DNA of 64,000 bases, from NCBI GenBank assembly GCA_004022145.1, contig RCNU01000014.1. The stretch is one strand, 5' to 3'. The notes beneath the pieces were generated by a model. The model saw nothing but the letters and a program-made list of their open reading frames with translations, did not search any database and was not told where the DNA came from. This document shows, in pieces, positions 17,771 through 37,384 of this stretch. The position numbers and the translations under genes are program-made. Source of the stretch: Paecilomyces variotii (taxonomy: Eukaryota). Within the stretch, counting starts at the first letter, position 1. Every line of letters starts with the position of its first letter.

Positions 17771-18031
17771 GCCGTCAAATCAGCCATCTGAAGTCGAATA
17801 TACATATATATATTCCGCTATATACTTGCATTTTTTCCTGCATCAGACTAACTCAAGTCATAGTGCATTTTTGAGTATAGAAGAAGTTTTTCCTGCGAGG
17901 CTGTCTTCCTGTTTTACCTTAGGTTCTATATGCAATAAACTATATGACATATCTATGCTTGGTTCTCTTGATACTCGCAGATCTAATCTGTCTGATATCT
18001 GCATATATTCCTGTTTTTCTATTCTATCAGC

Positions 18032-18094
18032 ACACACGACCATTGGGTGTGGAAAACAGGGCTTCCCGTCCGTTCAGCCGTACTTAAGCCACAC
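18032..18094 (+). rRNA. 5S rRNA gene, 5' half (outer), interrupted after AAGCCACAC
   Basis: ACACACGACCATTGGGTGTGGAAAACAGGGCTTCCCGTCCGTTCAGCCGTACTTAAGCCACAC matches the first 63 nt of Eurotiomycete 5S. TATA-like CATATATT at about -30. Similarity to 5S stops abruptly. Confidence 0.92.
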
Positions 18095-18116
18095 ATTCCA
18101 CACAGTTAATTGTTGA

Positions 18117-18655
18117 GAAGCCTTCTTTGTATCTAAGGCTTCTGATGGAGTAATGGTGAGAAGTCTCTTAGCATGGGTGCAGGTGAGATGGGGTGGCCCC
18201 CAGAGGCCTGTTTTCAGGACGAGTTTTACAGATGCTTTTGGAGCGTACTCGGACCAGGTATTGGCGTTTCAAGTGAATGGTCTGGTACTGGCAAGGGACG
18301 AATCGACTTCCATCTCCAGGAACCAGGATGGGGATTTGAATTGCTAAAGGACGGAGATCGAATAGGACAACACTGCGACCGATTCGATCCGAATGGGACC
18401 TATTATCCGTGGATACAGAACGACAAGCTCAAAGATTGGCTGATACTCGATTGCAGACACACTTACCCTCGTACGATTTGTAAGATACTTCCTTCTCATT
18501 ATGATTCCATTGACGATCAATGTTAATGCTCTGCTCCAGATCCAAAGCAGCAAAAGTTGTGGAGAGTTGTGTTCACAGATAATTACTCTCGCGTTCAGAT
18601 TCTTAATTGCAAGAATGAGAAGGTTGTTCCGGAGTTTCAGCTAGTAAATGTATAG
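18117..18655 (+). pseudogene. 5'-truncated fragment of a Crinkler-associated PD-(D/E)xK nuclease-like gene (2 exons)
   Basis: PPEACFQDEFYR...SSEW...GRIDF...WGFELLKDGDRI..HCDRF...YYPW...DWLILDCR, then intron 18480-18539 and KLWRVVFTDNY. An in-frame stop lies at 18114-18116 and the N-terminal domains are missing. Confidence 0.6.
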
Positions 18656-19418
18656 GTTATTGGCGTTTTCTTTCTTCGGTTACTTCCTCATAAACTTATC
18701 AAGTACTCTTAACTCTGCGCAACTGTTATACTAAAATTCTCGCTTTCCGTATGTCAAAATGTGTACTTTCCTCTTGTGCATGTAAGAGTGCGTCCCGACG
18801 ATCGCACGCGAGATGCAAGTGTTGAGGGCATATTTACTCTTATCTCAACCCCTCTATGTAATATCTGAGATCTGAGAACTAGACCAGCATTCCAGTGTAG
18901 TGATATTACCATACATGGATTATATGGATTATATGGCGCCGTCACACGCACTGCTATCTTAGTATGGCGTAGAGTTAACTGTAACCTCTACTTAGCTCGC
19001 CCGCATGGCACCCACCACCTTCTGGCGGCATTCAATCTCAACGGAGCTTCTCTGTGGTGTTTCTCGGGTGGCACGACGAGGCTCTGAGTTAGGGTGAGTG
19101 CGCGAACGACGGGTTACTTAGACGCATTTATCCCAGTCGCTTAACGATGTCGGGCCCGAAACACATCGTCAGCTCGTCAGCTCAGCTCAGCAGCTCCAAT
19201 TCCCCATTTGAATTCGATCTTTAATTTTAAAATACCTATTAGCTCATCTGTTTAGCCGAGCAGTTCCTTTAAAGTATAAAACTGGATATATATGCTGGCT
19301 TGGACCATCGAGGAGGGTCTTCGAAGTTACTTTTCAAACGTGCTCTCGATTGGAGCCGACCGCATCGTAGGTAATGGCAAATACCATGTTCATTATTCGA
19401 AGTGAGCTGCGTAGTTGA

Positions 19419-21066
19419 TCAACCCCCAAGTTTGAGAAACGGATGATCCATGAGTTCACGAGCTGTTCCCCTCTTCTCCGGGACCCAGTTGAGCATTTGT
19501 CGAACAAAAGATAAAAATGCCTCTTGATCTTTCTGTTCGAGGAATGAAGTAGTATCCTCTAAGCTTCGGGACGGGATCAATCCAGTATAGCGGAATTCAT
19601 CTAAAATAGTCAGTACATCAGGTATTTACATATGAAATGGTTGGCCAACTTACCTTCTGCATCAAAAAAAGGGCCGTCAAAGAATTCCCGAGCACTGTTG
19701 CAGAGTTTGCCAGTGTCGTTTGCAACAGGCTGGGGCCACTTTTGCTCTGACATAGTCTTTGATTTCGCAAGCAATACCTTGGGGGGCGGGCCAAGTAGAG
19801 CAATCATTTCTGCGAGGTGTGACTTTGCGTCGTATGTGCCGTCTGCATTATGTACCTGTTGGAACAACTCCTTGCTCCCAAGGATATTCCACAACTTGCC
19901 GAACAGGCTTGTTAGTATCAAGGCCAAGCCAGCGGTTGTAACCAATAGGGAAATAGACAGTCGCAGGGGACTGACCAACACACCAAAATTCCATATATCT
20001 GCCTTGAAATCCCAACCACAGCCAAGGATTACCTCTGGAGCGCGGTAGGGGTCTGGTTGGATAGGATAAACACCAAGTTGCTTTCCTACCATCCCATCTC
20101 GAGTATGTGGCTTGTCGAGCCTTGTTGCGAGCCCGAAATCGGCTATTTTGGGAATCATATTCTTGATATCTCGCCCGTCAAGAGCGCCGAAATCATTATG
20201 GCAGCGGTAGATAGTTCGACCACTCTTGCTATCAATCTTGTATTGCATTTGTTGTTGTTGTATTATGAAGTTGGTAAGGACGTTTTCGTTTTCAAAGCTC
20301 ATGAGGATGTTATCTAGCTTCAGATCTGAAAGGGAGATAAGGTATTTATATTTGAGGCAGAGTCAAATTGCGAAAAGCACTTACCGCTGTGAACAACTTT
20401 GCATTCTGAGTGAAGATAATCAAGACCAACAAGGCAGAAGTAGATGTAGACCTTCGCAATGGGCAAGGGAATCTTGCGATCAACGAAACGCCTTTGGAAC
20501 ATCCACAGAGGCTCTCTCATCGGTTCGTACACGAGGCACATGTGCTTCCCTTCTGGACCAGTTACTTCGACGTCATCTAGACATGTTCGTAGAATCACGC
20601 GGCCACGGTGCTCTGGATTTTGCTGTTTGATATGGCTTTCAATCTCCTTCTCATGTCGAGCATCATTGGCATTGTTACTGTCGATTATTTTGAGAACCAC
20701 TGTTCGCTCAGATTGCCATTTAAGTCTTAATTGGGTGGACCATGGTCAGTTTCTCTGTAGTTGAATGAAGCATGAAAGCACATATGCGGACGTGGGTAGC
20801 TACCTTGAAATGTCTCGGGCGAGCCATACGGTAGATTGCGATCCCCAGCCGATTTTGACAAGTAGTTGAAACCTCTCTGCCAGTACTTCCCCAGGATTTG
20901 CTGGGTAAAAACTTGCCGAATTGTAGCCTGGACAGAGCTCCTCGTCGACAGGTTCCTGCTGAGGAATTGGAGGCTCAGATGTACGCCGCAATTGCCAGAG
21001 AGACTTTCTGGCAAAGGAATACACAGTACGTCGCGATATCAAGGTCAGCCACCGATGAGGTAACAT
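19419..21066 (-). CDS. SRPK-like (CMGC) serine/threonine protein kinase, multi-exon; element cargo
   Basis: KIGWGSQSTVWLARD; VVHS|DLKLDNIL; IADFGLA; IQPDPYRAPEVILGCGWDFKADIWNFG; MLNWVPEKRGTARELMDHPFL*. Confidence 0.9.
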
Positions 21067-21501
21067 CACTCCATCCGAGCGTTATGGAATGCTATTGGAA
21101 TGCTCTGGGAATGGTTGAGTGCCAGGGAGATTGCAGAAAAGCTGAACTCAAAGTTAGCATTAAAGCTAATCTACAGATTGACAGTGAATTGGGACCCAAA
21201 TGATGATACCCGGTGTGGTTACTCACAAGTCCAGGGGTAAGGATGCAGAACGAAACGGATCTAGAGGTGGTGCGTTGGGGGGACGCCGGACAAAGAAATG
21301 TACTCAACGCCGGAAGGAATGTTATATAGAGGTAAAATAAACTCTATTAAAAGTCCAAAGGCGAAGGAAAGAAAAGAACAAGATGCGACATATTATGCCT
21401 GGACCAATGTTGCACTTGTTATGGGAACATCGGGGGTCGGTCTTGGCCGGCCAAGCTAACCGTATATAGAAATATACCAATCTTACTATGGTGTTCCCTT
21501 C

Positions 21502-21505
<4 letters not shown>

Positions 21506-21535
<30 letters not shown>
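21506..21535 (+). repeat. (AGT)n microsatellite, about 10 units
   Basis: agtagtagtagtagtagtagtagtagtagt. Confidence 0.9.
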
Positions 21536-21536
<1 letters not shown>

Positions 21537-22068
21537 TGGGAGGTACTTAGCCCAGCTTAAGTTGAGCTCCAAACATCCTTGAAAGTGATTTAATTAAGCA
21601 TGCTGTTGAGACTTCAAAACAATCCTCCAACATCAATACTTGATGTTTTGCCGCTGCGACCCAGGCGCGACTACGCACTTGAAGTAAACTGGGAAGGCCC
21701 GGGGAACAGATGCCATGAGAACCACGCATGTCTCCTAAGTATTGTACAAGCAGTCAAGTAGCCGCCCTCTATGATCAATGTTATGGACGCTTCCTCTCGT
21801 GACATCAAATGAGTGCTATATGTGCCCAACTTTTCAGGAGCTGCCTTTGCCCATTGCTGCGCTCTTCACGAAACCCTCTTGTCTTTCAGTTTTGGGTGTC
21901 CCATCTCCTTCTCGAACAAGTAGAGACAATTATAGCGGCTGTGTATTCTTAGCTAATCTATCATCTATTCAAAGCACTGTAGGAGCACCCTTTTCCCTAG
22001 CGCAAAACCCTGAGCAAAATCACCGAATTCCTGTCCATTTCCACGGAGTTCATCTCTACAGGACCCAG

Positions 22069-23655
22069 CTATCCTGCAATCTTATAACCGCGTTCGATGA
22101 CATTATCAGATGCGACAGTGAAACACCAGTCCAGGTAGTGCCCTGACCTCGCTGCATAACGGAAGAATCCGATAACATTTCCGTCGTCATTCCAGATAAC
22201 GGATCCGCAAATGCCGTCCTCCAGGTAGTCAACAGACCCTTGACCCATATATAGCCACCGAGCCTTGACCCATACAAACTTTGGTTCGTAAGGGTCATCG
22301 CTCGGAACGCGTATCCGCGAATGCGGACCGCAAGTGCCTTCCGAGTAACCAAGGAGAGGGCTGTTCATGTAGATTTTCGAGCCGATCTGTGTCTCGTCAG
22401 CCGGGATGAATTCCTTCAACTGGGTAGGTGTTGCTCCGTCAAGTGGACTCTCGAAAGTTTCATTGACAAAATGGACCTTGTCGTGCAGTTTGACGAGGGC
22501 GACGTCCGTATGCGAAATTTCCATGATAATCTGTCCGACTTCTTTTCCCGTGCTGCACGGATGGAAGACTTTATCGCCATTTGGGAAACCATGGGAGGCG
22601 ACAGTCATATACCTCTCGCCTAGACAATCTTCAACCAGGACGCCGGAGGTGGTACGATACTCAACGTGAGTGGTATCATGTCTTGCAGAGCTCAACATGA
22701 CACCAGGACGCAATATATCATACTCGCTATCGTCGACGACATCGCCAGTCGGGTCACGGATCCGGCGGGCCGGAAATTCGTTCAGCTTTGGACGTCCCAT
22801 CTCCTTCTCGAACAGGTAGAAACAATTACAGCGTCCTATGGCAGAAGGAACTTCAGCCAGATCGGTGTCCTCATTCTCTAGAACAATAACGAAGAAATTG
22901 TTCCAGTACTGAACTTCCGTAATCGAAGTTTCAGATTTTGCGAAAAAGTCAAACACCAGCTCAAATGCATCGTCAATCCTAGTGGGTGGAAGGTTGACAG
23001 CGTTGATTTCAGCGGACACGCGAAGGCGTGATTTGCTCGGGCGTTTTATTGGCGGAATTGGGCCATCATCATTCGGATCAATTGTGAAGTAAGGCTGGAC
23101 ACCGGCAATAGTAACTGGCCAGGGCTTCGGTGGTAAAGTACCGAGCCAAAACACTAAGAAATAGCCATCAAAATTCACCGCTTTTGTGTCTGGAAAGAGG
23201 TGGAGTAGTAGCCCAGAATCCTTGGTAGCGAAGGCTTTACGATTCTGCCGGAGATTGAATGGAAGAATGAGGTGGCGAGACGGGGGAATTTGGATTTCCG
23301 GTAACGACGACTCTGGCGACTCAGGGTGGGCATGCGTCGTCTTAAGCGGAGATCTTTCGTCTAAGACACAATAAGTAGATGATTTAAAAGGTAAATTTGA
23401 TGAAAACTTACTGATCAAAGCTTCGCCTGATGGGAAAAGACGCTTCGATGGCTCGAAGAGGGGCGAGTCACCCAGACGGAGGACCGTCCTCTCTGAAGGG
23501 AAAGCGCCACGAGGAGATAAAATGAAGCTTTTGCTAGGGGACGACAACTCTGACGACGGGGTGACCTTTCTCTTACTACTCCCAGGTGACTTCTCTGATT
23601 TGCACGCGCGGGGGGTGACAATAAGCCCCTCCTCGATATCTGCTGGACCTGTCAT
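22069..23655 (-). CDS. Intronless hypothetical protein with C-terminal chymotrypsin-like peptidase-type domain (Cys in the nucleophile motif); element cargo
   Basis: Long uninterrupted ORF with a Ser/Pro-rich N-terminus. C-terminal TSGVLV...MTVASHG, HTDVAL and DGICGSVIW...VIGF motifs occur in trypsin-fold order. Start codon uncertain (ATG 23655). Confidence 0.7.
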   Translation of the reverse strand: MTGPADIEEGLIVTPRACKSEKSPGSSKRKVTPSSELSSPSKSFILSPRGAFPSERTVLRLGDSPLFEPSKRLFPSGEALISKFSSNLPFKSSTYCVLDERSPLKTTHAHPESPESSLPEIQIPPSRHLILPFNLRQNRKAFATKDSGLLLHLFPDTKAVNFDGYFLVFWLGTLPPKPWPVTIAGVQPYFTIDPNDDGPIPPIKRPSKSRLRVSAEINAVNLPPTRIDDAFELVFDFFAKSETSITEVQYWNNFFVIVLENEDTDLAEVPSAIGRCNCFYLFEKEMGRPKLNEFPARRIRDPTGDVVDDSEYDILRPGVMLSSARHDTTHVEYRTTSGVLVEDCLGERYMTVASHGFPNGDKVFHPCSTGKEVGQIIMEISHTDVALVKLHDKVHFVNETFESPLDGATPTQLKEFIPADETQIGSKIYMNSPLLGYSEGTCGPHSRIRVPSDDPYEPKFVWVKARWLYMGQGSVDYLEDGICGSVIWNDDGNVIGFFRYAARSGHYLDWCFTVASDNVIERGYKIAG

Positions 23656-24689
23656 GGCTAGGTATTTTGGAGTCTTGGACAGACGAGGAAACACTGGAGC
23701 CCGAGAGATGAACGGCCACTACCCCGACTTTCCGTGACGTGAATAAGAAGTCCTCCTCTTGGTATTATCTGAGCTTAGTTTTGAAAGATGAGTGAGCTTG
23801 GCCTTGAGAGATGAGTGAGCTTGGTTTTGAGAGATAAAGGTTAACTTGGCGGTAAAAGCGTCAGAGGTGAAGGCGCGACCTGGGGCAGGCAGAAGGACGT
23901 CACGTTGACCAGGCTGCCGAAATTGAGACTCATGGGATGCTAACGACATGCTCCCTGGTAATATAAGCTCTACCACCGTGGTAATTGCACTATCTCTCAT
24001 CACTAAATTTCGTCTATCCATTCCTCAACCGTCGTAGTATCTCGACAGGTTAGTAGACCAAAGCCTTTCGCGGCGATGAATATCTCAGATAACACATTAA
24101 TAATATCTATAGGTTGGACTGTTACTACTTGTCCTAGTACCTCAATAGGGTCATTGTATTAATTAGTCTTCTGGTCAGTTTCAGGATCGATATTGCCAAC
24201 TTCGTTTAGCTACCCGGTTAACATACTTACCCCAGCGATAAATATTAAGGACAATGCTGTGAATTCGGACTATAATATAAACAGAGGTAGCACATAACAT
24301 TATCCAATACTTTAAGGAATATCCTGCCTAAAGCTTATCAACAATAATAGGTCTTTATATTTTTAGATGCCCAAGACAGCTAACTAATAATAGGCTGTTA
24401 ATCAGCAATTATTCTCGTCTAACTAATAATAACAGCGTGAAAGTTCAGCCAATAATGATCTTCGCTGGCTCACAAATCCTTGACGCTGTTCACACTCTGT
24501 CTGTGCTCGGTAAACCAATAGATAAGTGGGCTATAATAATAAGAGCGACACGCCGACTCCTCGGCGGCAGCCACAAATCTAGTTCTGGCTAATAATCGCT
24601 CGTATATAAGCGCCTACTTAAGTAATCAAGTGGTTATCACAATCAAACTGAATTGTAGGGTTACGAAGACCAGGATATGACCTGATGCA

Positions 24690-25050
24690 GATAATGCACC
24701 CGATTTATAATTGGACCCAAGAAGCTTGTGGTCTGAAACGAGCCCATACTTACTCGTCCTGACGCCTATTATTCTGATAAAGGCGGATTCGACCGAGAAC
24801 GACGGAATCTGTAAGTTAGACTCACAGGGCTCTTTCAAGTTCTCCACTCACCCAAAATGTCTGATTATCACACACTCAGAGAGGCCATCTAATAGAAATC
24901 ATAATCTGAGCAGCAAGAATTAATGTATTTGGCTAAGCGCAAGCTGAGATATAATATCTCTTGCATGGATTTCTGATAGGAAAGAATAATGCTACATCTG
25001 CTTACTAGCGATCTTTTTAGCTTATGAAACTTAATCCAAGGCCCTGTGAT
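24690..25050 (+). pseudogene. Degenerate, RIP-damaged coding remnant of unknown family
   Basis: EPILTRPDAYYSDKGGFDRERRN, a GTAAGT...CAG intron, then RGHLIEIII*AARINVFG*AQAEI*YLLHGF with stops explainable as C-to-T changes. TpA-rich surroundings. Confidence 0.3.
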
Positions 25051-25761
25051 GGCATCGGCTTTATCCAAATTATTATAGGAGTTTCACACCTAAGCGCTGA
25101 ACTAAGCGGATAATATCGAAATAGCAACGTACATTTGCTGTTGACTCTCTAGCTGAACACCTAACGGGGGGGCAACTCAACTCCCAAGTCATAGCTGCCA
25201 ATAGAACTTGGGTGATGTTCCAATATGCCTGTGATGCCCCATCTCCCCTAAGCGCTGTACTGTAGTCTAGTCGCCCTCTGTTCCAAAAGCTATATTGGTT
25301 ATCTCTTCACAGCCAGTCAAGTTATGCGCAATAATAAAGCGTGAAACGGGCCATCTTGACAATCCCTGAATACCTCTCAATAGCTTGGATCAAAATGCAG
25401 GAGTTTGGGAGCTACAAGGGTGGCACTCCAAAGTGTGCATACATTGCACACCTAAACAACACGCCCAGGTAGCTGCTATCATTGGCAGAATGGTCCCCTA
25501 CATGCTAAAGGATAGTCCTGGCCGAAAAGCAAGCTACTGCTCGTCAAGTAGTATAAATATATGCCATCCACTTCGTTGAAAAAGAAGGGGACAGTCGTCG
25601 CTTCATCTTCTGAAAAATTACGTGCACGCCATTTGCATAGAAGGTTGGTTTCTCTCAGTAAAAATCATGTTTTTAATATTAATTTCCCTAGGTCCGTTCT
25701 CATTTCTTGGTTGCAGACACATTGAAAACGAGCCTCAAACGAACTACTCAATTCTTCAAAC

Positions 25762-26208
25762 ATGAACAAGACCTATCAACTTTCCGTTTCGATATTTGGT
25801 CCGGGGAGCTCCGAGCGCGCCCACTGGGGATTCGTAATCCATCAACCACCGAATCTCTATGGAGATCTCCTCCACGTTAGAGTGATCGATGTTCCTGCCA
25901 ACCGGTTTATATTCGAGAATCGATCCGGACATGGCCTACGCTCCCAGAACGCGTGGGGATTGTGCAAGGTTGCGCTACTCGATAATGCACAGCGGATTAA
26001 GGTGACTTCGATACTCTCGAGCGAGAAGCCACCAAATGGTGGAACAAAAGACTGCCAAGACTGGGTAGTAGATGCGCTCGTTTCATTGGAAGTAGAAGAA
26101 TTGGTCCCTGATGGTACAACACAAACCTGGAAATCGAGGGTGGGAAAGCAATCAGTGGCCATCAAGGGAGAGGTGGGTAGGGACTGGGAATCTTTGAATG
26201 ACAAATAG
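25762..26208 (+). CDS. Small hypothetical protein with HWG...H...CQDWV motif (permuted papain/NlpC-P60-like); element cargo
   Basis: 148-aa intact ORF with good start context (AAAC ATG); AHWGFVI, LLHVR, KDCQDWVVDALVSL. Confidence 0.75.
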   Translation: MNKTYQLSVSIFGPGSSERAHWGFVIHQPPNLYGDLLHVRVIDVPANRFIFENRSGHGLRSQNAWGLCKVALLDNAQRIKVTSILSSEKPPNGGTKDCQDWVVDALVSLEVEELVPDGTTQTWKSRVGKQSVAIKGEVGRDWESLNDK

Positions 26209-26211
26209 ATA

Positions 26212-27081
26212 TTATACAGGAGAGTACACTCTCATCGACCGATCAATCTCATCCCACAATTTGTACTCTTCCGGGAAAGCGGGAATAAAACAGGGGATTA
26301 TTTCAATCCAACTTTCTTCCATAGCAATCCGCTTAGCGGCAAAGTATTCCCTCTCTGGAAGACTGTACCCAGCCTCGCCCCAGTCTACTATTCCACTGAC
26401 CAGCCCATTCTGAATAATAATGTTATCTGTATGCAGGTCGCCGTGAGTCATAACTCCTATATCAGCAGAGCGCTGATTGTCATAAGATAGAATCTTCTCC
26501 TTCAGTTCTTCCTCTGTTTGACCCCAGACTCCATCTGGCCTTGATAAACGAAGTGCTTCAATAACACCAAGTTTATACTCTTCTAGCGATTGAAAAGGTC
26601 CATATCGCTTTAGAGAAGTATAGTCCCAAGGATGTTTGAAGATGATATCCTCACAAGGCCCACCATCCACCGAGCCTAGGAAAGGAGCGCCCAGTTTGCG
26701 CCATTCTAGAACGTAGGAGTTAAGTTGGCGTGCAATCGATTGGCGCTCTTCGTGCGACATATTATCCCAAGATGAGCCAAGTGGTTCGCCCTCCACCTTG
26801 CTCATCAGAATGAAACCTATATCCCCAATCGTATATGCGCTGAATACTTTAGGCACCGGGATGTTTGTTTTCGTAGCCAGAAGGATTAGTGCCTCCGCTT
26901 CACTCATTTTCACCGTCCAGCCAACTTTCAAAATCGTAGATTGGGATATCTGCCAGATAGCATTCCCGCTCATTCGATTTGGGGCGAGATCTATTGCTGA
27001 TTCGAGTTGATCGACTGGAACAATGAAGTTATCCTGTCCACGCAGTGAACTTGTGAAGACAACATTTGATGGCTCGGCCAT
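26212..27081 (-). CDS. APH-family (aminoglycoside phosphotransferase-like) kinase; element cargo
   Basis: 289-aa intronless ORF; EAEAL...TNIPVPKV, FILMSKVEG, MTHGDLHTDNIII, IVDWGEAGYSLPEREY. Confidence 0.9.
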   Translation of the reverse strand: MAEPSNVVFTSSLRGQDNFIVPVDQLESAIDLAPNRMSGNAIWQISQSTILKVGWTVKMSEAEALILLATKTNIPVPKVFSAYTIGDIGFILMSKVEGEPLGSSWDNMSHEERQSIARQLNSYVLEWRKLGAPFLGSVDGGPCEDIIFKHPWDYTSLKRYGPFQSLEEYKLGVIEALRLSRPDGVWGQTEEELKEKILSYDNQRSADIGVMTHGDLHTDNIIIQNGLVSGIVDWGEAGYSLPEREYFAAKRIAMEESWIEIIPCFIPAFPEEYKLWDEIDRSMRVYSPV

Positions 27082-27384
27082 AATCTCCTTTAGATATCCA
27101 AGGATTGATCGACCAGGATTCTAGAATTCTGCTGTTAGATAGGAGCTTTGTGAAGGGAAATACAGTTTCTACCTTATTGAAATAGGCCAACACACTTTCC
27201 GGGGCGCGAGACATGATTGCAATTGCCAACTGTATCAGTTGAAATTATTGAGAGCAAAGTTGACTGGGGCCGATCATGGTTGCAGATGACCCCGCCAGGC
27301 TCGCCTCGTTTTTAGCGTCGCTTGACGTGGCGGAAGAGGCAAAGTGACCTGTGTACCTACTCTTTCTCTTTATCATTTTTTGAT

Positions 27385-27619
27385 ATAGTCGTAATGTGGC
27401 AATGATAGTGCTAGCAAGCCCGAGATTGTCGGTTCTACCGTGTTGCTCGTGAGAATGGGTAAACATGCTCTTAGGTTGGACGATTAAACACTGCTAAGAT
27501 TAGGTATTCCGCGCCCAGATCCTCCGCACATTCAATATTTGCGCAACTGAGTCACAAGCCATTCTCCAAATTTGAGTCTTGTCCTTGGAGATCTTAACCC
27601 TCGGGCAAATTCAAAATGA
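27385..27619 (+). repeat. Diverged direct copy of the sequence downstream of the 5S 3' half (partner at 31865-32124)
   Basis: 22-nt exact match ATAGTCGTAATGTGGCAATGAT, plus AGATTGTCGGT..TACCGTGTTGCT and TGAGTCA.AAGCCA.TCTCCAAAT.TGAGTCTT..CCTTGGAG...CTCGGGC.AATTCAAA.TGA. Confidence 0.85.
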
Positions 27620-27666
27620 AAATAACATCTAGTTAGTATATGAGGCCAATTGAAGTAATTTCTAGC

Positions 27667-27729
27667 ACATACGACTATAGGGTGTGGAAAACAGGGCTTC
27701 CCGTCCGCTCAGCCGTACTTAAGCCATAT
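27667..27729 (+). pseudogene. Second 5S rRNA 5' half (inner), RIP-mutated, broken at the same position
   Basis: ACATACGACTATAGGGTGTGGAAAACAGGGCTTCCCGTCCGCTCAGCCGTACTTAAGCCATAT, with TATA at about -30 and CpA-to-TpA changes relative to 5S. Confidence 0.9.
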
Positions 27730-27826
27730 ATTCCGCACAGTTAATTGTTGAGACGCCCTTTATGTCTTTAAAGTTTCTGAAGTGACGATAAGAAGTCTCC
27801 TAGGGTAAGTGCAGGTGAGATGGGTG
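27730..27826 (+). repeat. Diverged copy of the element left end (partner at 18095-18195)
   Basis: ATTCC.CACAGTTAATTGTTGAGA.GCC...AGAAGTCTC.TAG...GTGCAGGTGAGATGGG is shared by both junctions. Confidence 0.88.
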
Positions 27827-28035
27827 AGTGCTCGATAACTCTCACCTCTGGAGGTGAGAGACTCACGCGATAGGGCAAGACACTCACCCAACAGGGCAAG
27901 AGGGCTCACTTAGAGCGGCCGAGCTCGCCTTATCGGTGGAACAACCCCCATAATAGATGTATTAAATAGGCCAGGCACCCTTCTAACTCTCTTATCCTCA
28001 TATAACTAATATAGACAGAATCCCCCGATACTTCC
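27827..28035 (+). mobile_element. Possible solo-LTR-like insertion remnant
   Basis: Starts where left-end homology stops and precedes a 5'-truncated LysM gene. It has internal short repeats (AGGGCAAGA x2, CTCAC x4), a CTCTCACCTC/GAGGTGAGAG hairpin and a TATA-like box followed by a pyrimidine tract. No clean TG...CA ends. Confidence 0.25.
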
Positions 28036-28071
28036 AATATTGCACGTGACTTCCACATAATTATAGCTACA

Positions 28072-29658
28072 GGTTGAGCTTCCAACATTCCGCTCCTGGA
28101 ATCCTAACATCAATTCCGCTTGCTCTAACCTAGGCGCTTTGGAAGGACAATACATATGTCTCAGGTCAGTAAATCCTGTATTTATATGAGCTCTACTGAC
28201 GCAATAAAGCCCTCCTGGAATGACAGAAATCCCAGATTCTTTTCCATTGATGCCTGCAAGTGTCGCGGCGTAAGTACTACATACGACCTAAAGAGGATTC
28301 GAGGACTAATTGCTTACAGGCCTGTCCCAATAGATGCTGTTACGACCTCCAATACGAAATGTGGACATTGGTATAAGGTTTAGAGTGGTGATACCTGTGA
28401 CAGCATTACAAATGAGTTCGATATATTACTCACGGATTTCGAGTTTCTCAACCCGCAGTTAGATATGAATTGCACAGACCTATGGTTGGGAAACAGTTAT
28501 GTAAGTCGTCGGGGAATATTGCAAGATGCTTCAAGATATAAATCTAATATATCTATTTTAGTGTGTCCAACCAGTCGGCAACATTAAAACATATTCTGGG
28601 TATTCTGTGTCATCCTCAGGCTACAGTGCACTCCCGACTACAATTAACCTCAACGCTACACTAACAGCGAACCGATCAACAACGTAAGATCACTCTTCTT
28701 CTTCTTCTTCTTCTTCTCTCTCTCTCTCTCTCTCTTTCTCTTTTTTTCCCTTTTTTTTTCTTTTTTGAGAGGTTGGCTAATGATGTATGTTCAATTTATT
28801 AACCAAGCAGTCATTTTTTCCCCACCCTTACCCCTGTTACTACGAGTACATTCGTCTATAACTCAACAGCCGTCTCCTTTGCTCATAACTATACGCTCTG
28901 TTCACAAGCTTTGAAATATTACAATATCACCAACGGCGATATCCCAGAGAGTGTGGTCCAAGACTCTCAGTGGTACTCAGAATACCAGAGGGTCTGTTTA
29001 CTCAATCTGAGTCAACCGTTGCCCACTATACCTTTCAATATAAGTATTACTACCCCTCCATCAAATGGTGCAGGTCCGACTACTACAGTCGTAATAAGTG
29101 CTTCTTCTGCAATGTCGTCAACATCCACGGCATCAGGTACTACAGGTATCAGAATTTCCCCGGATGGCACGTGCGGAGAGTCCTACGGATACACCTGTAA
29201 AGGGTCATCTTTCGGCGACTGTTGTAGTATTTACGGTTATTGGTATAGTATTCCCATCTTCACCACGTTCTATAGTCAAGATTCAGATTCTAATTACCAA
29301 TATACAGTGGTTCTGGTAGTGACTACTGCGGTTCTAATTGTGATCCGGAGTATGGGGACTGCAGTTCGTATAGTTCATCATCTACGGCTTCGGCTGGTGC
29401 TTCTGCGACATTGCCATCAGCTTCAGCTACATCAACTGCAGCAATTACAGTTTCTCCGGATGGTACATGCGCAGAGACTTATGGATATACTTGCAAAGGG
29501 TCAACCTTCGGGGACTGTTGTAGCATATATGGTTATTGGTATTTTTTCCCATCCCCGCTTCCTCTTCGTGTACCATGCGATACTCATGTATTCACAGCGG
29601 TTCCACCAGCGACTATTGTGGCTCAAATTGTGACATCAACTATGGCAATTGTACTTAG
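28072..29658 (+). pseudogene. 5'-truncated LysM + 2x hevein/CBM18 chitin-binding protein pseudogene
   Basis: LysM-like TFRSWNPNINSACSNL..GQYICL and CGHWYKV*SGDTCDSIT...FEFLNPQLDMNCTDLWLGNSY|CV, with TAG at 28381-28383 (likely from CAG). Two SPDGTC..YGYTCKGS.FGDCCSIYGY|CG repeats. Confidence 0.8.
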
Positions 29659-30261
29659 ACCGCGCATTATCCGAACAGGTCAGCGTGATCTCACGAAGCT
29701 ACTGTAGTTGTGATAACCTATGATGAGTGAAAGGACAACTGGTCCTTGATTACTGTCGTCGTCCATTGTTGTGCTTGATCCGACGCATTCTATTTGTGAA
29801 ATACCAAAGCAGAAGAGAAAAAGGGTTAGCACGAGTCCCTATAGATGAATTCTACTTTCGTGTACATAAATAATTACTCGATTCGATCTTCAAAGCAAGG
29901 TTGAAGATAGCAAGTAATAATCAGAATTTTATTAAATTTACGAGTTTTTTAACTAAGAGGCTACAGAACAATAATTAATTAACCACTGTAACAACATTAC
30001 TGTTAAGATGGCAATACGCCTGCAAAGCAAAAAATGATAGAGAATATGCGCTCTTTTCCCTTTAACTCTAAATTACTAGTACGGTACTGCGGAATAACCA
30101 CTAATTAATAGCGGGCGAGTGGTGGCAAATGTCTCCACAGTTGTACCGCAGAAGATGAAAAAAATGTAAGGCAGATTCCATGATACCAACAAAACAGCGA
30201 CTCATAAAGACCTTAGATCCCTCCAATCTCCATACTAAGTCATATTTCCAGACACCCGAGG

Positions 30262-31524
30262 ATGGCGACTTCAAATCATACAAGGCCAATTCGATATTGG
30301 CCGGGAGGAATCCCTGCCTCCGTTCAGTATCACCCGACGAAACAACTTACTGAGCAAGAGAAAGATAATGGGAATTGGGATTTTCCTACTCCTGAGGAGA
30401 CCATTGAAGAATCAAAAGGTTGGCTGTTATTTGTCGAGGTATGTGTCATGTTTATGTTTGGAAAATAAAAGAAATCCGAATTCTTACTTAATCCTCCATT
30501 TCATATAGGAACAATGGCTGTCTCGCGAGGCAGCAGGTAGCTCAGATGAAGACGAAGAGTACGAACTCCGTCAAAGACGTTCTTTGGTCGAGAAGTGGGC
30601 CTCAGCAGATCAGTCATTTCGTGATGTTCGTAATATCTGTCTTATCTTGCACAGGAATCCAGCACTAATTGACAGTCTTTTCATAACCGCGCGCACCCCA
30701 GGAAATCAGCGATAGATTATCCATCTTCAGCTTTAGAACGCCTTGAAGACACGCGGCAGGATTATAGCTCTTGGGTCTGCATAAATCCTGTAGATACGCC
30801 ACTCAAGCGTGCGCGCTTTGTCAAGTTCTTGATCCTTTGTTACCGACTTGATGGACAGAATTGGCATCCAGAACCAAACGGCGAAATCCTTCCCACAATG
30901 GTGAAACCAAACCCTGCTACATTCCCGGATGCTAACGACTTCACTATTTCCGACTTCCCTATGTGGGCGGTTGTCGAAACGGCTGACTTCAAAGCTATAT
31001 CAATGTCTGTTACGGGGCATCTTATCCTCGAAACCAATTACGGTCCATATTTCATCATCGATCAAGCTTCTCTTGAGACAGGCCGATTCTTCGTTGTAGA
31101 ATATAAATCAACAGGCCATATCGACCATATCATCCCACGACGACCGTACTTTTTAACGGATCTTGTGAATTATTCCGAGCTTGGATTCACAGTCGAGCGT
31201 ATGGAGGAAGAAAATATCGGTGGACGCGAACAATATCAGAATCAGCCGTAAGTGCAATCCTACTTTCGAAAACGCAGTATTTGGCGCTTACGACTTTCAC
31301 TCAGGATGGATATGGATCTACCAATTCTAGACATTATTCAAAAAGCGAAAGATAATAATCAAATGACGAAGTTCTTTTACACTGAGCGTGATCAGTGGGA
31401 GAAGGATATTGAGCTATATGCGCCAGGTTACTTGGCCATGGAGGCGGAAGGGAGGGCTTCAGAGTATGACATTCGGAATCTAAGAGACACACGCGAAGCG
31501 AGTAGGGCACGTTGTGGAGGATGA
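30262..31524 (+). CDS. Hypothetical multi-exon protein; last cargo gene of the element
   Basis: MATSNHTRPIRYWPGGIP...GWLLFVE, with GT-AG introns linking ORFs 30262, 30829 and 31252. Protein-like composition; family not recognised. Confidence 0.65.
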
Positions 31525-31745
31525 AATATACCTTTTCTTCGGATAGCAATTAGCTACTCGATTCATACCATGGGGAACATACTATAAACACTAAAGTTTT
31601 GGCCCCTAAGGTCGCGCGACTATGTGTCGCGTCTTACCCGCTATCGCTCGCGCACTTACTCTAACTTACCCCAGTTGCGCGACCGTAAAGCGGCTCTTGC
31701 CCGTTACTTACCCGGGCGGCACCCAGGGCCCTATTGACTGCAGAG

Positions 31746-31810
31746 AAGCCACACGCCGGCAGGTTAGTAGTTGGGTGGGTGACTACTAGCGAATCCCTGC
31801 TGTTGTATGT
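31746..31810 (+). rRNA. 5S rRNA gene, 3' half, followed by Pol III poly-T terminator
   Basis: AAGCCACACGCCGGCAGGTTAGTAGTTGGGTGGGTGACTACTAGCGAATCCCTGCTGTTGTATGT then a T run. Joined to either 5' half it gives a 119-nt 5S gene. Confidence 0.93.
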
Positions 31811-32509
31811 TTTTTTATTTTTTTTTATTTTGTATTCTTTTTCTCCTTTTCTTTCTTTATATAGATAGTCGTAATGTGGCAATGATGCTGCTAGATTGTC
31901 GGTGTTACCGTGTTGCTGGCGTTTCATAACCAACAGCGGAGTCCGTTTCAGCGTCCCGAACGTTGCCACAGGTAGTTCTCACACTGGCTTAATGAGAAGG
32001 TTTAATCGAAATGCTGCAAAATTTACTCCGCCCAAATTCGCACTTTGACATTTGCGTATTGAGTCAGAAGCCAGTCTCCAAATCTGAGTCTTTCCCTTGG
32101 AGTCTCGGGCGAATTCAAAGTGACACTGCCTGTCCAACCTTGGAAAAGTCTTCCCTGAAAGTTGTTGCCACACGTCGACGATCTTCCGTCGTTTATATCT
32201 GGCATAGCTGCATCGGTGGTTTCGCGCATGGATGGTGATGCAGATAGTATTTGCTGGTGTATTGATGCTTTCACCCGTGGATCTCAACAGCAGTATGCAT
32301 GGACCCGAGACTCAAAAGTCCTAATGAAAGGTGAATGAAGAGGAGGATGATCAGGTCTTATCAAGGGAGGGGTGGAGTCCCTCCGAATGGCTCTCGCATG
32401 GTAATGTCGTATAATTCATGGGACGGAAACACCTAAAGGCTGTGGCAGTAGGCGCCTGATTGTATAAATAATGAATTAGAACTAGGATCATCACAAGCGC
32501 ACCGTGATC

Positions 32510-33088
32510 TTACCTTGAGAGTAGACCCCAAAGGAGATTGATAACGACGAATATGAGCCATATAATCAATACTGCATACGGGTTAGAAGAGGCGCCAAAA
32601 TTCAAGAAAAAGCTCCATCGTGAGCAAAGATACAAACCTTCAGCACCCCATATTTCGCAATGTCTCAAAACCGTCTTCCAGCGTTTGGTCTTCAGCCAGG
32701 TTGGGACGAGGTCCATTTGACACGTCTTGCCTCCGATGACGAGACAGCCTCCTTTTGTTCTTCGACATTCGAGATGCCTTCTTCTTCTCTCCATGATCCT
32801 TCTGATCCTCCAGTTACAGAAGGACTCGTCGGTTCTGAACGAACATTTCTCCATTGGACATTCGAGCTTCAGTTCGAAGCGTTCCACGAGCCAGTCCACT
32901 TTCAAATGGACGCCGGTATATACGAGATAATAGAAATGGCGAGATGTGTGCTTCAATGCTAGCGCATCTGGGTATGTGAGGTAAGATGCAATGTGTAGAT
33001 GAAGTTCCGTGGGTAGATCCATCAGTCTCAATGGTCGTTCTTGAGCATGTGCTCGTGGCACGGTATCTCTGCCCTGAATATCTTCCAT
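32510..33088 (-). CDS. F-box domain protein (start uncertain; one intron near the 3' end; C-terminal hydrophobic segment)
   Basis: LMDLPTELHLHIASYLTYPDALALKHTSRHFY F-box; Cys-rich CPMEKCSFRTDESFCN...HLEC...GGC region. Confidence 0.8.
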   Translation of the reverse strand: MEDIQGRDTVPRAHAQERPLRLMDLPTELHLHIASYLTYPDALALKHTSRHFYYLVYTGVHLKVDWLVERFELKLECPMEKCSFRTDESFCNWRIRRIMERRRRHLECRRTKGGCLVIGGKTCQMDLVPTWLKTKRWKTVLRHCEIWGAEGLYLCSRWSFFLNFGASSNPYAVLIIWLIFVVINLLWGLLSR

Positions 33089-33856
33089 GACTGCATCAAA
33101 TGGATTATACACGGGAAATTGAATAGAACTGCTCCCTGGGACAGAGACCAGGATATAAGACAACAATATAGAGCCAGCAACAGTAGAGCAAATGGCAACA
33201 GAGCAAACAACAGACAGACGAGTCAAGATGGAATATGGCTGCCTAGCTCCACCGGCATGATTGGCTCTCCATTTAGAATGAAGATGACACTTGGAATACA
33301 GCAAAATGAACAAAGTGCTTCTCAGAAATAGAGAAGCCTGAAGGATCAGATCTTCCGTTGGATTATTCGGACGTGCAGTACTTGACGGCAGGATAGACCG
33401 GTGTTAAAGAACGGGAGTATCTTTCCAGTAGGTACAGGTGAGATGATCAAGCAATAGTAAACCCTGCAGATTGTAAAATGCAGAGCTTGAGCCACCCAAC
33501 TGAAGTAGAAACATTAGAAATACAAGTCCCCATGGATAAAAAACAGAGCATTATCTGGGCGACTGTTCAATATGCGAGCCCCTCCATGCTGAGACATCCG
33601 AATGCGGCGTTGTTTGTTCTCGGGCAGAAAGCACGGGCCACCCATCACATGTTCCATTCGTTCTCTCCGCCTTCAGTTTTGGGCTATTTTGATGGACTTC
33701 TCTTAAAGCTATCAGCAACAACTTGCTTACTTGCACCCATCTGCCGCAAAACAGCCCACTGCAAGAATCCTTATACCTAAATTACGATATTGCAAGGACA
33801 AGCATAATTTTCAGGACCCCTCAAAGAACAAGAAAAGAAATTTAAAAATTTCAACA

Positions 33857-34516
33857 ATGGCAGACAAGTCCAAGTCTGCCTACGGTGTCGCCTCCGACGA
33901 CACCTCCTTCCGCAAGACATGGAACCGCGAAGAATACGCCAGGAAAGCCGCAGAGGAAGAAGCCAAATCCAAAGAGGAATCCAAGGCGCGATATGAAGCC
34001 AAGCTCGCGGGAAAGAAATACCATGCTCCCGTCGACTACAGCACTCTGGAGGCGACGTCCTCGCGCAAGCAACGACTAGATGTGGCGTCGATGGTGGGAA
34101 AGACGACGATAGTGCCAGCTGGTGCGGGAGTGGGAAAGAGAGGAAGAAGTGCTGGTTTCTACTGCCCCGACTGTGACCTTACGTTCAAGGATAACATACA
34201 GTTGGTGGAGCATCTGAATAGCAAGCAGCACTTGATCGCCACCGGACAGAGTGGAGAAGTCGTTCGTGCAACGGTGGAAGATGTACGGAACAGATTGCGC
34301 TGGTTGGCGCACCAGAAGCGAGTGAAGGAGGAAGAACAGCGAAAGGCCTGGCAGCTAGATCTGGGAGCTCGACTTAAGGAGAGAGAAGAGGAAGAAGCCC
34401 GCGAGCGCGAGGAAAAGCGCAGAAAACGGAATGAGAAGCGGAGAAAGGCGAAGGAAGGCGAGGACGGAATCAAGCAAGAAGACGGTTGGGAGGGTAGGCT
34501 GGGAATCATCGCATGA
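33857..34516 (+). CDS. snu23: U4/U6.U5 snRNP zinc-finger protein Snu23/ZMAT2
   Basis: DTSFRKTWNREEY; GFYCPDCDLTFKDNIQLVEHLNSKQH; RATVEDVRNRL; charged C-terminus. Confidence 0.9.
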   Translation: MADKSKSAYGVASDDTSFRKTWNREEYARKAAEEEAKSKEESKARYEAKLAGKKYHAPVDYSTLEATSSRKQRLDVASMVGKTTIVPAGAGVGKRGRSAGFYCPDCDLTFKDNIQLVEHLNSKQHLIATGQSGEVVRATVEDVRNRLRWLAHQKRVKEEEQRKAWQLDLGARLKEREEEEAREREEKRRKRNEKRRKAKEGEDGIKQEDGWEGRLGIIA

Positions 34517-34749
34517 GCTATCTACATTGTGCCGGTTGCGGAGTCTACAATTATACCCATGGCGTTTTGGTGCAGGAGGCCTTGGCTGGTCATATTACAA
34601 TTCAGAGCCAGGAAAAGTAGTTATGCTGCATGTTGAAAAGAACATCTTAGATTAATCCGAACATTATATCCTATCCTTCCTGGATATGTACCTATGGTAA
34701 CGCCGTGATCCCAGACCGTGACCCTACCCCGACCTAAACCTGCTCCGAT

Positions 34750-37384
34750 TTAATCAACGCACTCAATTCCCTCCAGTGTCCTCATTGCTTTCCCGCCTTC
34801 TTTCTCGAAGAGGCCGACCAGCCGCTCACACTCATACTTCAGTCTCTCCTCCCCATTCTTCGCATTCCACAAGATCCATTCCTCGACGGTCATTTTCTTC
34901 TCTGAGGTGCTGAGCTCCCCCTTAACATCGCCGAAGAGTCCGTTTACATCGATGTTTTCCTTGTCGTTCGATCTGGTAATAACAATTTCATCCACGTCAA
35001 CAGGCTTCCATGGATGTGAAGTTCTCAGTCGTCCGATGTTAGTATTGCGTTTGGAGGGCGAGACTGCGGGAGTAGTCTCCCCAAGGGGTATGCGAACAGT
35101 CTTCGTAGGAGAAATCACGGGTGGACGGACTGCCGATGGCCTAGAGGATGGAGGGCGATTTTCAGCATCTGAAGACTGCGGAGATGGCGACGGCGTGCTC
35201 TTCTGAGTGGGCGCGGGTAGGGACGATGGGGCTACATGAGCCTCAGCATCACTCCTAGAGCTCGTCCGCCTTGAATTGCTCTTGCGATGTTGTGAATTCG
35301 CAAGAGCCTCTGCGTGATGTTGCTCACGAGGAATATCACTGTATCTCTCAGCTGTCTTCGGTGGGACTTGGGAGGACCGGCGAGAGCTATTGGAATCACG
35401 CTGTGCATGGACTTTTGCGGTTTCTTTGCCAATTGACATCCTCGGAGCGTCCTGGCCCAGTTCATCGTCAGACCTCGAAACATCATCCGGAACCGACTCG
35501 GTATCCGCTACGACGAGCTTTTGCGCTTTTGCGGGCTTCTTGCCCTTAGGAGCAGCCTTTTTCTTCGACGGCTTCTTGCTCACTGGGTTGGTTTCCAGCT
35601 CTGCATCCGACTCCTGATGTCCTCTCGACTGAACACCGACTGATATAACCGAGTCTTCTTCTGGATCAGCAAGACCGTGGGAGTCTGTATGAGACACGCG
35701 AGCGTGAGCGTCCTGTCCTTTCGAGTTGGAGTCCGTTGCCTTCTTCTTCTTCGGCCTTCCTTTTTGAGATTTACTTTTCACTGGCGCTTCAACCACATGA
35801 GTCTCAGGTCCGTTGAGTTCGTCATCGTCATCCTGTCGATCCGCTGTCTGGTCCAATGATTCTCTGCTGGTTCGGATGTGCGCTACGGATGCAGTTGACT
35901 TCTTTTCGGGAGCAGAAATTGTCGAGTCGTTAATGGTCTCAACGGCCGTGTTACCTGCCAAAGAACCGTCGCCATCCAAGTCCGCTTCGAGCGCCGCATC
36001 AATCTGGGCGTCATCAGGTATGCGTGACCTAAGAGAAGCTTTCGACGCGGCGGAAGCTCCAGATACTTTGCGAGTTGCTGATGAACGGCCCGGTTTGCGC
36101 CCACGTTTCTTTGGCCCAGGTTCTGTCACCGATTCTTCCGCATCCGTATCCATACGCTCATTCTCGCTCATTGTGCTTGCTCGAGCTTTGGCAGCGCTTT
36201 CGCGGGACTGGGTAGCTCTCTTCTTGGTCGGTGGCTCTTCAGCGGCTTCTTCGTTATGTGGTTGCTGCTGCACATCCTCGCTTATATCATCGCTTGTCCT
36301 CTTCTTTCCCTTTCTGCCTCGCTTTGGCTTCGGAGGCTCGGGACGTTGCCCATCATTACTGTCTATATCGACCTGATGACCCTCAATCTCATCGACTTCC
36401 TCTTTCTTGATTTTGCTGCTTTTCGCTTTTGATTTTGTGGACTTCTTGCCGCGTGTTGATTTTGTTGTAGCCTGTGACATGATACTCTGGTCCATTGCAT
36501 CATCCATATCTACCGTTGGGGCCTCAGAGACAGCCGTAGCCGTAGACTGGGTCGATAATCGGGATGTCTTGGAAGCACGGGGCTTCCTGGTTTTGGATCC
36601 TTTCGTTTTCTTGCCTGGCGGTTGACTGAAAACGAAGAAGGAACAGTCGGGAGAACGACGGTGGTGCTCCTCACTGGTGACGGTTAGTTGCAGTCAATTG
36701 GAAAGAACAGCACAGTCGTTACTCACTAAGGGTCGTCTTTGGGCTCCCAGCCATCGAGGGATAATTTGCAGTAGGCACAGCTAGCCAGGTCGTCGCTTTC
36801 TTCTTGCGGACAGAAATACCAGCCCGCTTCGACCATCTATACGGGTCACATGTTAGCGTGGTCTATAGGATGAGATCAGTGAGAGTAACGCTGTCACACA
36901 ACCTTTTCAGTCTGGCACATCCATCCTCGCTTTCCCTCATGTGGCCACGAGAGGCTGAACGTTGCCTTCCTCGCTTCTGCGATCCGGTCGCTGGTTGGAT
37001 CTTCGATCTCCGAGGGATTGGAGCTATGCTGTTGAATATCCATCATGACGGCCCAGCCACAATCTGGGGAGTGCTTTAGATGTTCTGCCAGTGGGTTATC
37101 ATCCTCCTCCCATCCATCCAGCCCTCTGTGGCACAGGAAACATGCTGTGTTGTCGGGGTTGCTCTCGTAGGGCTTGTAGTAGAAACCTGCATGCGCCAGC
37201 TGCAAGACGCAACTAATTAGCCGTTTGTACCAGCGAAATTGATGGCCGACTGTACCTCTGCAGGAGACGGTGAGCTATGTGGCCATGTGATGTATTTTGA
37301 CCCTTTCGCGCCCGATGTTCTTCGTTTCAAGGTAATGTCGAAGCTGGCCAGGCGGGCAGCGAAGGTCTCCATGCCTTCGCTCAT
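34750..37384 (-). CDS. bir1: BIR-domain chromosomal passenger protein (survivin/Bir1), multi-exon
   Basis: METFAARLASF...WPH; LAHAGFYYKP...DNTACFLCHRGLDGWEEDDNPLAEHLKHSPDCGWA; a second BIR repeat; C-terminal EKKMTVEEWI...CERLVGLFEKEG. Confidence 0.93.

Follow-up and report, generated by a model that had tools for sequence, protein, structure and literature searches.

How does a fungal genome come to hold two front halves of a 5S ribosomal RNA (rRNA) gene, broken at exactly the same nucleotide, together with a single back half? The question is raised by contig RCNU01000014.1 of Paecilomyces variotii (assembly GCA_004022145.1), of which we analysed a stretch of 64,000 nucleotides, here called the window. 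An earlier note on this DNA, made from the letters alone, had described a row of blocks in the order 5S5'-L-cargo1-F'-5S5'-L'-cargo2-R-5S3'-F, in which 5S5' and 5S3' stand for the halves of the gene, L, L' and R for the ends of inserted elements, and F and F' for two related flanks. This order is correct, and its coordinates needed slight refinement (Table 1). We refer to the first and second 5' halves as 5S(a) and 5S(b), to the outer unit that starts with L as E1, and to the inner unit between L' and R as E2. Our favoured answer, which we hold with moderate confidence, is that two neighbouring 5S genes, in the arrangement 5S(a)-F'-spacer-5S(b)-F, were each hit at the same nucleotide by related Starship elements of the Enterprise-family/Osiris kind, and that the insertions then decayed.

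Two 5S genes are split at the same position

A search with cmscan in E-value mode found exactly three partial matches to the 5S family (Rfam RF00001) in the 64 kb, at 18032-18114 (21.3 bits), 27667-27766 (23.5 bits) and 31675-31811 (25.3 bits). All three stay below the gathering score of 38 because each is half a gene, and no full-length match at or above that score occurs in the window. The second 5' half, which the earlier note had placed at 27667, is indeed broken at the same nucleotide as the first: both are 63 nt long, they are identical at 57 of 63 positions, and each is followed by a shared block of about 98 bp. The 9-mer AAGCCACAC forms the end of 5S(a), at 18086-18094, and the start of the 3' half, at 31746-31754. 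It is present three times in the window against 0.31 expected, a count that none of 100 shuffles reached. In 5S(b) the corresponding copy is mutated to AAGCCATAT. The 63 nt of a 5' half and the 57 nt that follow the repeat in the 3' half add up to 120 nt. At 31784 the 3' half carries a private T, where nearly all other 5S copies have C.

Each 5' half has a TATA-like element of its own, ATATATT about 25-30 nt upstream of 5S(a) and TATAT at about -30 to -26 of 5S(b), the latter inside the 47-bp spacer. The upstream sequences are otherwise unrelated, and alignment of the spacer with the sequence ahead of 5S(a) gave no significant similarity. Its own TATA-like box near -30 and the presence of F' upstream give 5S(b) the look of a genuine gene with surroundings of its own. 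Alignments for a third, decayed 5S gene after F or ahead of 5S(a) were not significant. Mimicry of the missing 5S halves by the element ends, by which the junction of a circle would resemble a 5S gene, was also rejected: alignments of the 3' half with L and L' and of the 5' halves with R scored at shuffle level, with 44 to 898 of 1000 shuffles equalling the observed score.

The two left ends are related

The homology of the two 5' halves continues into the elements. Self-blastn aligned 18029-18192 with 27664-27824 at 83.5% identity over 164 columns (E 4e-43), in a match that begins 3 nt ahead of the 5S start and stops at GTGCAGGTGAGATGGG. Within it, L and L' are 81% identical (77 of 95 pairs) with three gap columns in 98, and the score of their global alignment was matched by none of 1000 shuffles. 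The homology to 18095-18195 that had been proposed for the roughly 100 bp after the second 5' half is thereby confirmed, at about 98 bp and 81%.

L is cut at +98, where it adjoins a 5'-truncated gene. Because the sequence right after L (18194-18649) encodes only a C-terminal domain of ~130-150 amino acids (aa; GRIDF...ELLKDGD...LILDCRH), the end of the L/L' homology is a rearrangement breakpoint in E1, and therefore only about 98 bp are common to L and L'. The full-length relatives of the truncated gene are 268-748 aa long, and all 16 that were detected match by their C-terminal part, with at least about 130 residues before it; this domain-family search covered longer proteins only, so that a short free-standing form may exist.

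A Pfam scan of 11 of these homologues gave a weak, sub-threshold nSTAND3 match in five and a Crinkler N-terminal domain in one, from Amanita; the C-terminal domain itself has no Pfam match. We take this domain to resemble a PD-(D/E)xK nuclease. It may be a candidate for an undescribed effector domain of fungal NLR-like proteins.

The inner element appears to have both ends

E2 occupies 27730-31745, i.e., 4,016 bp. The motif GGGYAAG occurs three times on the + strand in L' (at 27803, 27873 and 27894, spanning 27803-27900), within 171 nt of the left boundary, and four times on the - strand in R (31633-31713), no more than 113 nt from the right boundary; the window as a whole has 28 matches. The Poisson probabilities of the two clusters, 8e-6 and 1.5e-8, are post hoc, since the motif was picked after inspection of the sequence. 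In an unbiased count, L' and the reverse complement of R share nine 7-mers, against 2.5 for random pairs, 1.3% of which get to nine; in direct orientation L' and R share two. There is also an imperfect terminal inverted repeat (TIR) with 8 of 10 letters alike (CAGTTAATTG / CAGTCAATAG), 8 and 5 nt from the direct repeat, which was matched by 92-98 of 2000 shuffles. Its copy in R reads CTATTGACTG and is the one 5 nt from the direct repeat. No long TIRs were found by repeat search or by local and global alignment. R, the only right end in the region, also carries the 11-mer GCCGCTTTACG on the - strand at 31684-31694, 51-61 nt inside the end. The inverted subterminal repeats common to L' and R support the view that E2 retains both ends, and with it the earlier description of an inner unit of about 4.0 kb as a mini-element.

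The cargo of E2 contains a Cys-rich two-repeat gene (28803-29704, +) and a 192-aa open reading frame (ORF) at 30673-31248 (+), which is 81% identical to a hypothetical protein of Paecilomyces variotii, its only named relative. An internal repeat of 160 bp (29098-29258 and 29397-29553, +; 75% identical) lies inside the Cys-rich gene, and encodes two Cys-rich modules (…DGTC…YGYTCKGS.FGDCCS.YGYW) in a Ser/Thr-rich ORF. The Pfam scans gave no family for the cargo2 ORFs, the Cys-rich repeats included. We presume that the modules at 28.8-29.7 kb, which have no Pfam match, resemble hevein-type chitin-binding domains.

The outer element is broken on both sides

The outer span, from L to R, measures 13,651 bp, of which E1 makes up about 9.3 kb. 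E1 is broken on both sides: L is truncated and the right end is absent. Its cargo comprises kinase-like ORF pieces (19422-20745, -), a 549-aa ORF without a Pfam match (22072-23718, -), a DUF6540 ORF (25726-26205, +) and an APH-family phosphotransferase ORF (26215-27120, -). Apart from the homologies described here, cargo1 and cargo2 show no similarity by self-blastn. Up to F', cargo1 contains no R-like sequence, no GGGYAAG cluster and no remnant of a 5S 3' half. A hidden right end ahead of F' was rejected, R against 18190-27400 giving local alignments at shuffle level, as was a hidden 5S 3' remnant, 5S against 27121-27359 giving the same outcome. A 7-mer signal at 24.1-24.3 kb turned out to be a single splice-donor-like 11-mer and not a right end.

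The 549-aa ORF has 142 homologues, scattered across Eurotiales, Onygenales and some Sordariomycetes, with 69% identity to a Histoplasma protein and 56-60% to full-length Penicillium proteins. The patchy spread of this family would fit a cargo that moves horizontally.

Table 1. Features of the split 5S locus (positions in the window)
Feature	Position	Strand	Basis
5S rRNA gene 5' half (a)	18032..18094	+	63 nt, cmscan partial match; exact 9-mer
L, left end of outer element E1	18095..18192	+	self-blastn, L/L' alignment
5'-truncated gene fragment	18194..18649	+	16 homologues, Pfam scan of 11
cargo1, about 9.2 kb	18193..27350		Pfam scans, ORFs
F', diverged copy of F	27351..27619	+	self-blastn, whole-flank alignment
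47-bp spacer ahead of 5S(b)	27620..27666	+	sequence reading, alignments
5S rRNA gene 5' half (b)	27667..27729	+	63 nt, cmscan partial match
L', left end of inner element E2	27730..27900	+	27730-27824 homologous to L
cargo2	27901..31632		ORFs, repeat, Pfam scans
R, right end of E2	31633..31745	+	GGGYAAG array, 11-mer, terminal inverted repeat
5S rRNA gene 3' half	31746..31811	+	cmscan partial match; exact 9-mer
terminator-like T-run, then flank F	31812..32124	+	F homologous to F' from about 31828

A copy of the downstream flank lies ahead of the second 5S gene

The sequence upstream of 5S(b) had been described as a diverged direct copy of the sequence that follows the 5S 3' half. This holds, with the full extent of the pair now set at 27351-27619 for F' and 31828-32124 for F. 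Self-blastn recovered two blocks, 27360-27447 against 31837-31917 (73.6%) and 27537-27619 against 32050-32123 (77%), between which the flanks align poorly; taken at full length, the flanks have 193 identical pairs among 241 aligned and 83 gap columns among 324. F' ends 47 bp ahead of 5S(b).

A further copy exists outside the locus. In run X16, from an isolate of the same organism, a contig of single-copy depth runs from a 5S 3' end over 25 letters of other sequence into a stretch that resembles F' from 27396 on, and therefore a third F-type flank follows a 5S gene elsewhere. In both cases with known upstream sequence, F in this locus and the X16 contig, an F-type flank comes after a 5S 3' end.

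The junctions match those of Osiris-type Starships

Enterprise-family elements of Aspergillus are reported to target 5S rDNA, where the insertion fragments the gene (PMC12153272, PMC11162782). Table S3 of PMC12153272 gives aagccacacg, ttaagccac and aagcc as the direct repeats of Osiris h1-h4 in A. fumigatus, and the supplement of PMC11162782 gives aagccacacg and ttaagccacac for captain-bearing elements in two other Aspergillus genomes. The 9-mer AAGCCACAC at both outer junctions matches this published direct repeat. The end of E2 provides a second point of contact: the TIR listed for Osiris-h4, ctgctgctttacg, corresponds to GCCGCTTTACG in R, which is the only perfect GCYGCTTTACG among the 23 matches with at most two mismatches in the window. 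The 13-mer of the Osiris h3 TIR was rejected as a marker, with 10 matches (at most three mismatches) against 13 expected and none at the ends. The four terminal 10-mers of L and R have no occurrence in the published TIR lists searched. An exact-pattern scan for other copies of L in public metagenome contigs found no locus, a result of little weight since fungal DNA is sparse in that collection.

A captain, the tyrosine recombinase that acts with a circular intermediate in Starship movement (10.64898/2026.09.21.753150), is absent. Pfam searches with E up to 1 found no DUF3435 domain in 58 ORFs of at least 60 aa within 18.1-32 kb, and there was none in 24 larger ORFs or in 87 ORFs of at least 110 aa elsewhere in the window. 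In Starships the captain is the first gene at the 5' end; in E1, the coding sequence that comes first after L is the truncated, unrelated gene. The cargo is of the accessory type, with kinase-like, APH, DUF6540 and orphan ORFs, and neither E2, with its 4,016 bp, nor the outer span of 13,651 bp has the large size of Starships, which in published elements is tens to hundreds of kb. Since captain and insertion polymorphism were not found, we file the locus as derelict remnants of the 5S-targeting Enterprise-family/Osiris kind and not as Starships proper.

Public sequencing runs contain the locus

Words sampled from 24001-34000 were looked up in the 24 public runs listed. Twenty of these contain 85-100% of the words and the other four next to none, with no intermediate values. 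The 20 positive runs come from nine studies, including food-fermentation and grain metagenomes and two isolates of one organism. Contigs of four runs from different studies were then placed on the region, and at least 31 letters were needed for a junction to count as bridged. The stretch that leads from the left flank by way of 5S(a) and L to cargo1 was bridged in three of the four runs (X12, X14, X17), as was the junction of 5S(b) with L', with 33 letters on the 5S side. The 5S 3' end into F and the right flank was bridged in two (X12, X17). At the junction of R with the 3' half, contigs ending at 31771 reach 26 letters into the 3' half and, being under the 31-letter rule, were not counted. 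A joint 27720>31746 is present in all four runs with sides of 24-38 letters; it reflects intact 5S genes elsewhere, not an empty allele. Run X17 has no depth over 29008-31675, yet holds 0.95 of the sampled words of 24001-34000, and the depth gap is treated as a filtering hole, not a deletion.

Two of the runs add observations on other genomes. Over 18001-35000, run X12 has 110 listed differences from the window, 64 of them C>T or G>A, and appears to hold a diverged strain or a close relative with the same arrangement. Run X14, a fermentation metagenome, has nine contigs in which the 5S 5' half runs to 27726 and then continues into mixed other sequence (agreement 0.62). This suggests that fungi in the community have other elements inserted at this 5S position. 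The same run has a joint 31826 > 27663, a contig that leads from the 5S end and about 15 nt of T-run straight into a 5S start; some organism in the sample therefore has 5S genes in close tandem.

How the locus may have arisen

The earlier note had offered three histories, namely repeated hits of related elements on a 5S landing pad, tandem duplication of the whole insertion unit, and an element that carried along a previous junction with its target. Repeated hits are best supported, by the published target and direct repeat, by the TATA-like box that each 5' half has of its own, and by the third F-like copy after a 5S 3' end; duplication of the whole unit is disfavoured, and the carried junction is a less likely rival. 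The history that we favour starts from what is observed: 5S is split, the repeat is present, the two units have a left end in common, the ends of E2 match each other, a captain is absent, and L stops at a breakpoint. Its landing pad would be an ancestral 5S doublet, 5S(a)-F'-spacer-5S(b)-F. By the mechanism described in published Starship work, a captain would have recombined the core of a circular intermediate with the identical AAGCCACAC inside the 5S gene, leaving the core as a direct repeat at both junctions and splitting the gene at position 63/64. E1, whose left end is now cut to its first 98 bp and fused to the 5'-truncated gene, would later have lost its captain region, and another deletion would have removed the right end of E1 together with the 3' half and T-run of 5S(a), so that cargo1 now abuts F'. 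E2 would have kept both ends, without a captain. The order of these events is conjectural.

A number of results weigh against this history. There is no trace of the right end of E1 or of the 3' half of 5S(a), so the deletion is assumed and not seen. An empty site or an insertion polymorphism was not seen among the 24 runs listed. With no captain present, only the target site and some short motifs at the ends speak for membership among Starships. In the 7-mer comparison L of E1 and R have nothing in common, and the alignment of L' with the reverse complement of R over their full length lacks significance, its score being equalled by 92 of 1000 shuffles. Identity of F' with the third copy elsewhere is at least 90% over the aligned part, against about 80% with F, as a carried flank would also predict, and no homology was detected between the spacer after F' and what follows F. 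Among the pieces listed, 32 of 956, none bridges 27343-27697, where F' is linked to 5S(b). Finally, the divergence of the 5S halves is lower than that of L and F, which would suit two genes that had both stayed functional up to their insertion; the difference falls short of significance (Fisher P = 0.06-0.6, binomial P = 0.058).

In the carried-junction account there was one outer element, from L at 18095 to a right end since lost, whose cargo already held a 5S gene with its upstream F-type flank, acquired either at a different 5S locus or through an excision that used the core of a neighbouring 5S gene. E2 would then have inserted into this cargo 5S gene, and recombination between two 5S 3' halves or right-hand cores would have removed the remainder, which makes the 5' half of 5S(a) and the 3' half at 31746 one original gene. 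Nested Starship insertions are documented, the region has a single right end only, the repeat is intact and identical at 18086 and 31746 and mutated in copy (b), and F' resembles the X16 copy beside a 5S 3' end more than it does F, as if it had been imported. On the other hand, more events are needed (a 5S gene must be captured along with its flank, a nested insertion must hit it, and a deletion must occur), the homology of F' and F must be a coincidental membership of one flank family, and the cargo1/F' boundary still has no 5S 3' half of the sort that precedes F-type flanks in the other two cases. We regard this account as unlikely, though worth keeping in view. It is improbable, in our judgement, that the insertions are not of Starship origin at all and come from an undescribed 5S-specific insertion system, or from recombination at a fragile 5S site, that shares only the target position with the Osiris type. 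The missing DUF3435 gene, the sizes of 4.0 and 9.3 kb, far under those of typical Starships, the lack of a counterpart of L in the published TIR lists searched and the empty metagenome scan for L would all suit such an origin. Against it stand the repeat identical to the published Osiris and Enterprise-family direct repeat, the Osiris-like 11-mer at the expected subterminal place in R, the accessory-type cargo with its patchy distribution, and the captain-less derelict Starships that have been documented.

Tandem duplication of a whole occupied unit (5S5'-L-cargo-R-5S3'-F) would give the observed order of repeated blocks, and the mismatch levels of the two pairs are alike, at 19% for L/L' and 20% for F/F'. 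It would have to be followed by full replacement of the cargo and loss of R-5S3' from the first copy, and we consider it very improbable. The cargos have no similarity to each other, no R or 5S 3' remnant stands before F', and the 47-bp spacer has no match in what follows F or in what precedes 5S(a). The comparison of L/L' with F/F' that the earlier note had proposed shows, moreover, that the pairs diverged differently: gap columns number 3 of 98 in L/L' against 83 of 324 in F/F' (P = 6e-8), and transitions to transversions 19:5 in 5S plus L against 23:25 in F (P = 0.013). A mis-join of the assembly within 5S(b), in which the F'-spacer-5S and 5S-L' parts come from two loci by way of the 50-nt shared stretch 27677-27726, is less probable still. 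It would agree with the unbridged link and with the contigs of all four runs, which stop at 27275 or 27343 and resume at 27697. This gap is, however, as expected of a k = 31 graph because 27677-27726 is identical to other 5S copies, and a shared stretch of 50 nt is shorter than an ordinary read and trivial for modern assemblers. On either side of the shared stretch copy (b) has private bases, at 27676 and at 27727/27729; the joints reported include no other one that leads away from this place, and single-copy genes lie on both sides.

More speculative, and in our view doubtful, is a wider proposal in which E2 would be a non-autonomous mini-Starship, movable in trans by an Osiris-type captain elsewhere in the genome. 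The same captain could then move the 13.7-kb composite from L to R, and scars of the 5S(a)-L type would be the conserved Aspergillus 5S pseudogenes of the 1980s. The Starship literature searched contained no description of a compact, both-ended, captain-less unit, 'derelict' being the term met there; in one Starship paper, 'non-autonomous' refers to a Tc1/mariner passenger element.

Surroundings of the locus

The window is fungal by content, with housekeeping and glycosidase-family ORFs in the Pfam scan, and the best named relatives of the cargo proteins are in Eurotiales and Onygenales. Ordinary single-copy genes carry on at either side of the region, which is situated between a GH71 gene and an F-box gene. 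A transfer RNA (tRNA) gene with a 47-nt intron lies at 15383-15501 (-; 57.8 bits), with the anticodon UUU as read from the anticodon loop; no tRNA was called in the window by ARAGORN in its bacterial mode. The tRNA gene is overlapped on the opposite strand, at 15446-15533, by a match to a C/D small nucleolar RNA family of A. fumigatus that is weak and below threshold.

Comparison with known systems

Much of what this locus contains has been described in some form, i.e., 5S-targeting Starships, 5S-rich hotspots, nested insertions and captain-less derelict regions. Its closest known relatives are the Osiris navis and other Enterprise-family elements of Aspergillus (PMC12153272; PMC11162782), with which it shares the 5S core and the direct repeats. 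Osiris elements also have a subterminal motif of the GCYGCTTTACG type near the end, a left end that follows the 5S 5' half, and accessory cargo. Whereas the Osiris entries are 11.7-140 kb long and have a captain, the units in this locus are 4.0 and about 9.3 kb long and have none; the left-end sequence is absent from the published TIR strings searched, and no presence/absence polymorphism was seen.

In derelict Starships (10.1101/2021.12.13.472469; PMC11623301; 10.64898/2026.05.11.723792), captain and mobility have been lost and the cargo becomes fixed host sequence, as in this locus. The published derelicts are large and were recognised by their cargo or by decayed captains, whereas these remnants are recognised by precise 5S junctions and ends and include one compact, both-ended unit of 4 kb. 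The 5S-rich hotspot on chromosome 3 of A. fumigatus is similar in that close 5S copies serve as repeated landing sites, and the sequential and nested Starship insertions of Macrophomina in that elements adjoin or lie inside one another. Those hotspots consist of large, segregating, captain-bearing elements, whereas the present locus appears fixed and decayed.

If the favoured history is right, the last stage in the life of a Starship can be read here nucleotide by nucleotide: two hits were followed by the loss of the recombinase and of one end, and some 13 kb of accessory genes became fixed among what are otherwise housekeeping genes. E2 would lend itself to tests of the end sequences that an Osiris-type captain requires.

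Two further systems invite comparison. The 5S pseudogenes of A. nidulans, the subject of work by Borsuk et al. in 1988, are reportedly truncated after the 5' half and continue into a conserved block of ~100 bp rich in GGTGAG/GGGGT-like motifs. In that form they would resemble the unit of 5S 5' half and L in this locus; no link between these pseudogenes and Starships was found in the Starship literature searched. Should the left-end scar indeed be the sequence associated with these classical pseudogenes, a long-standing puzzle would be solved in a simple way. In bacteria, integrative and conjugative elements and cis-mobilizable elements accrete in tandem at att sites, where recombinase-less units bounded by att sites stand beside related units and a recombinase acting in trans could in principle move either or both. 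The present locus differs from them in being eukaryotic and in its internal junction, which consists of a whole second half of the target gene with its flank and not of a hybrid att site.

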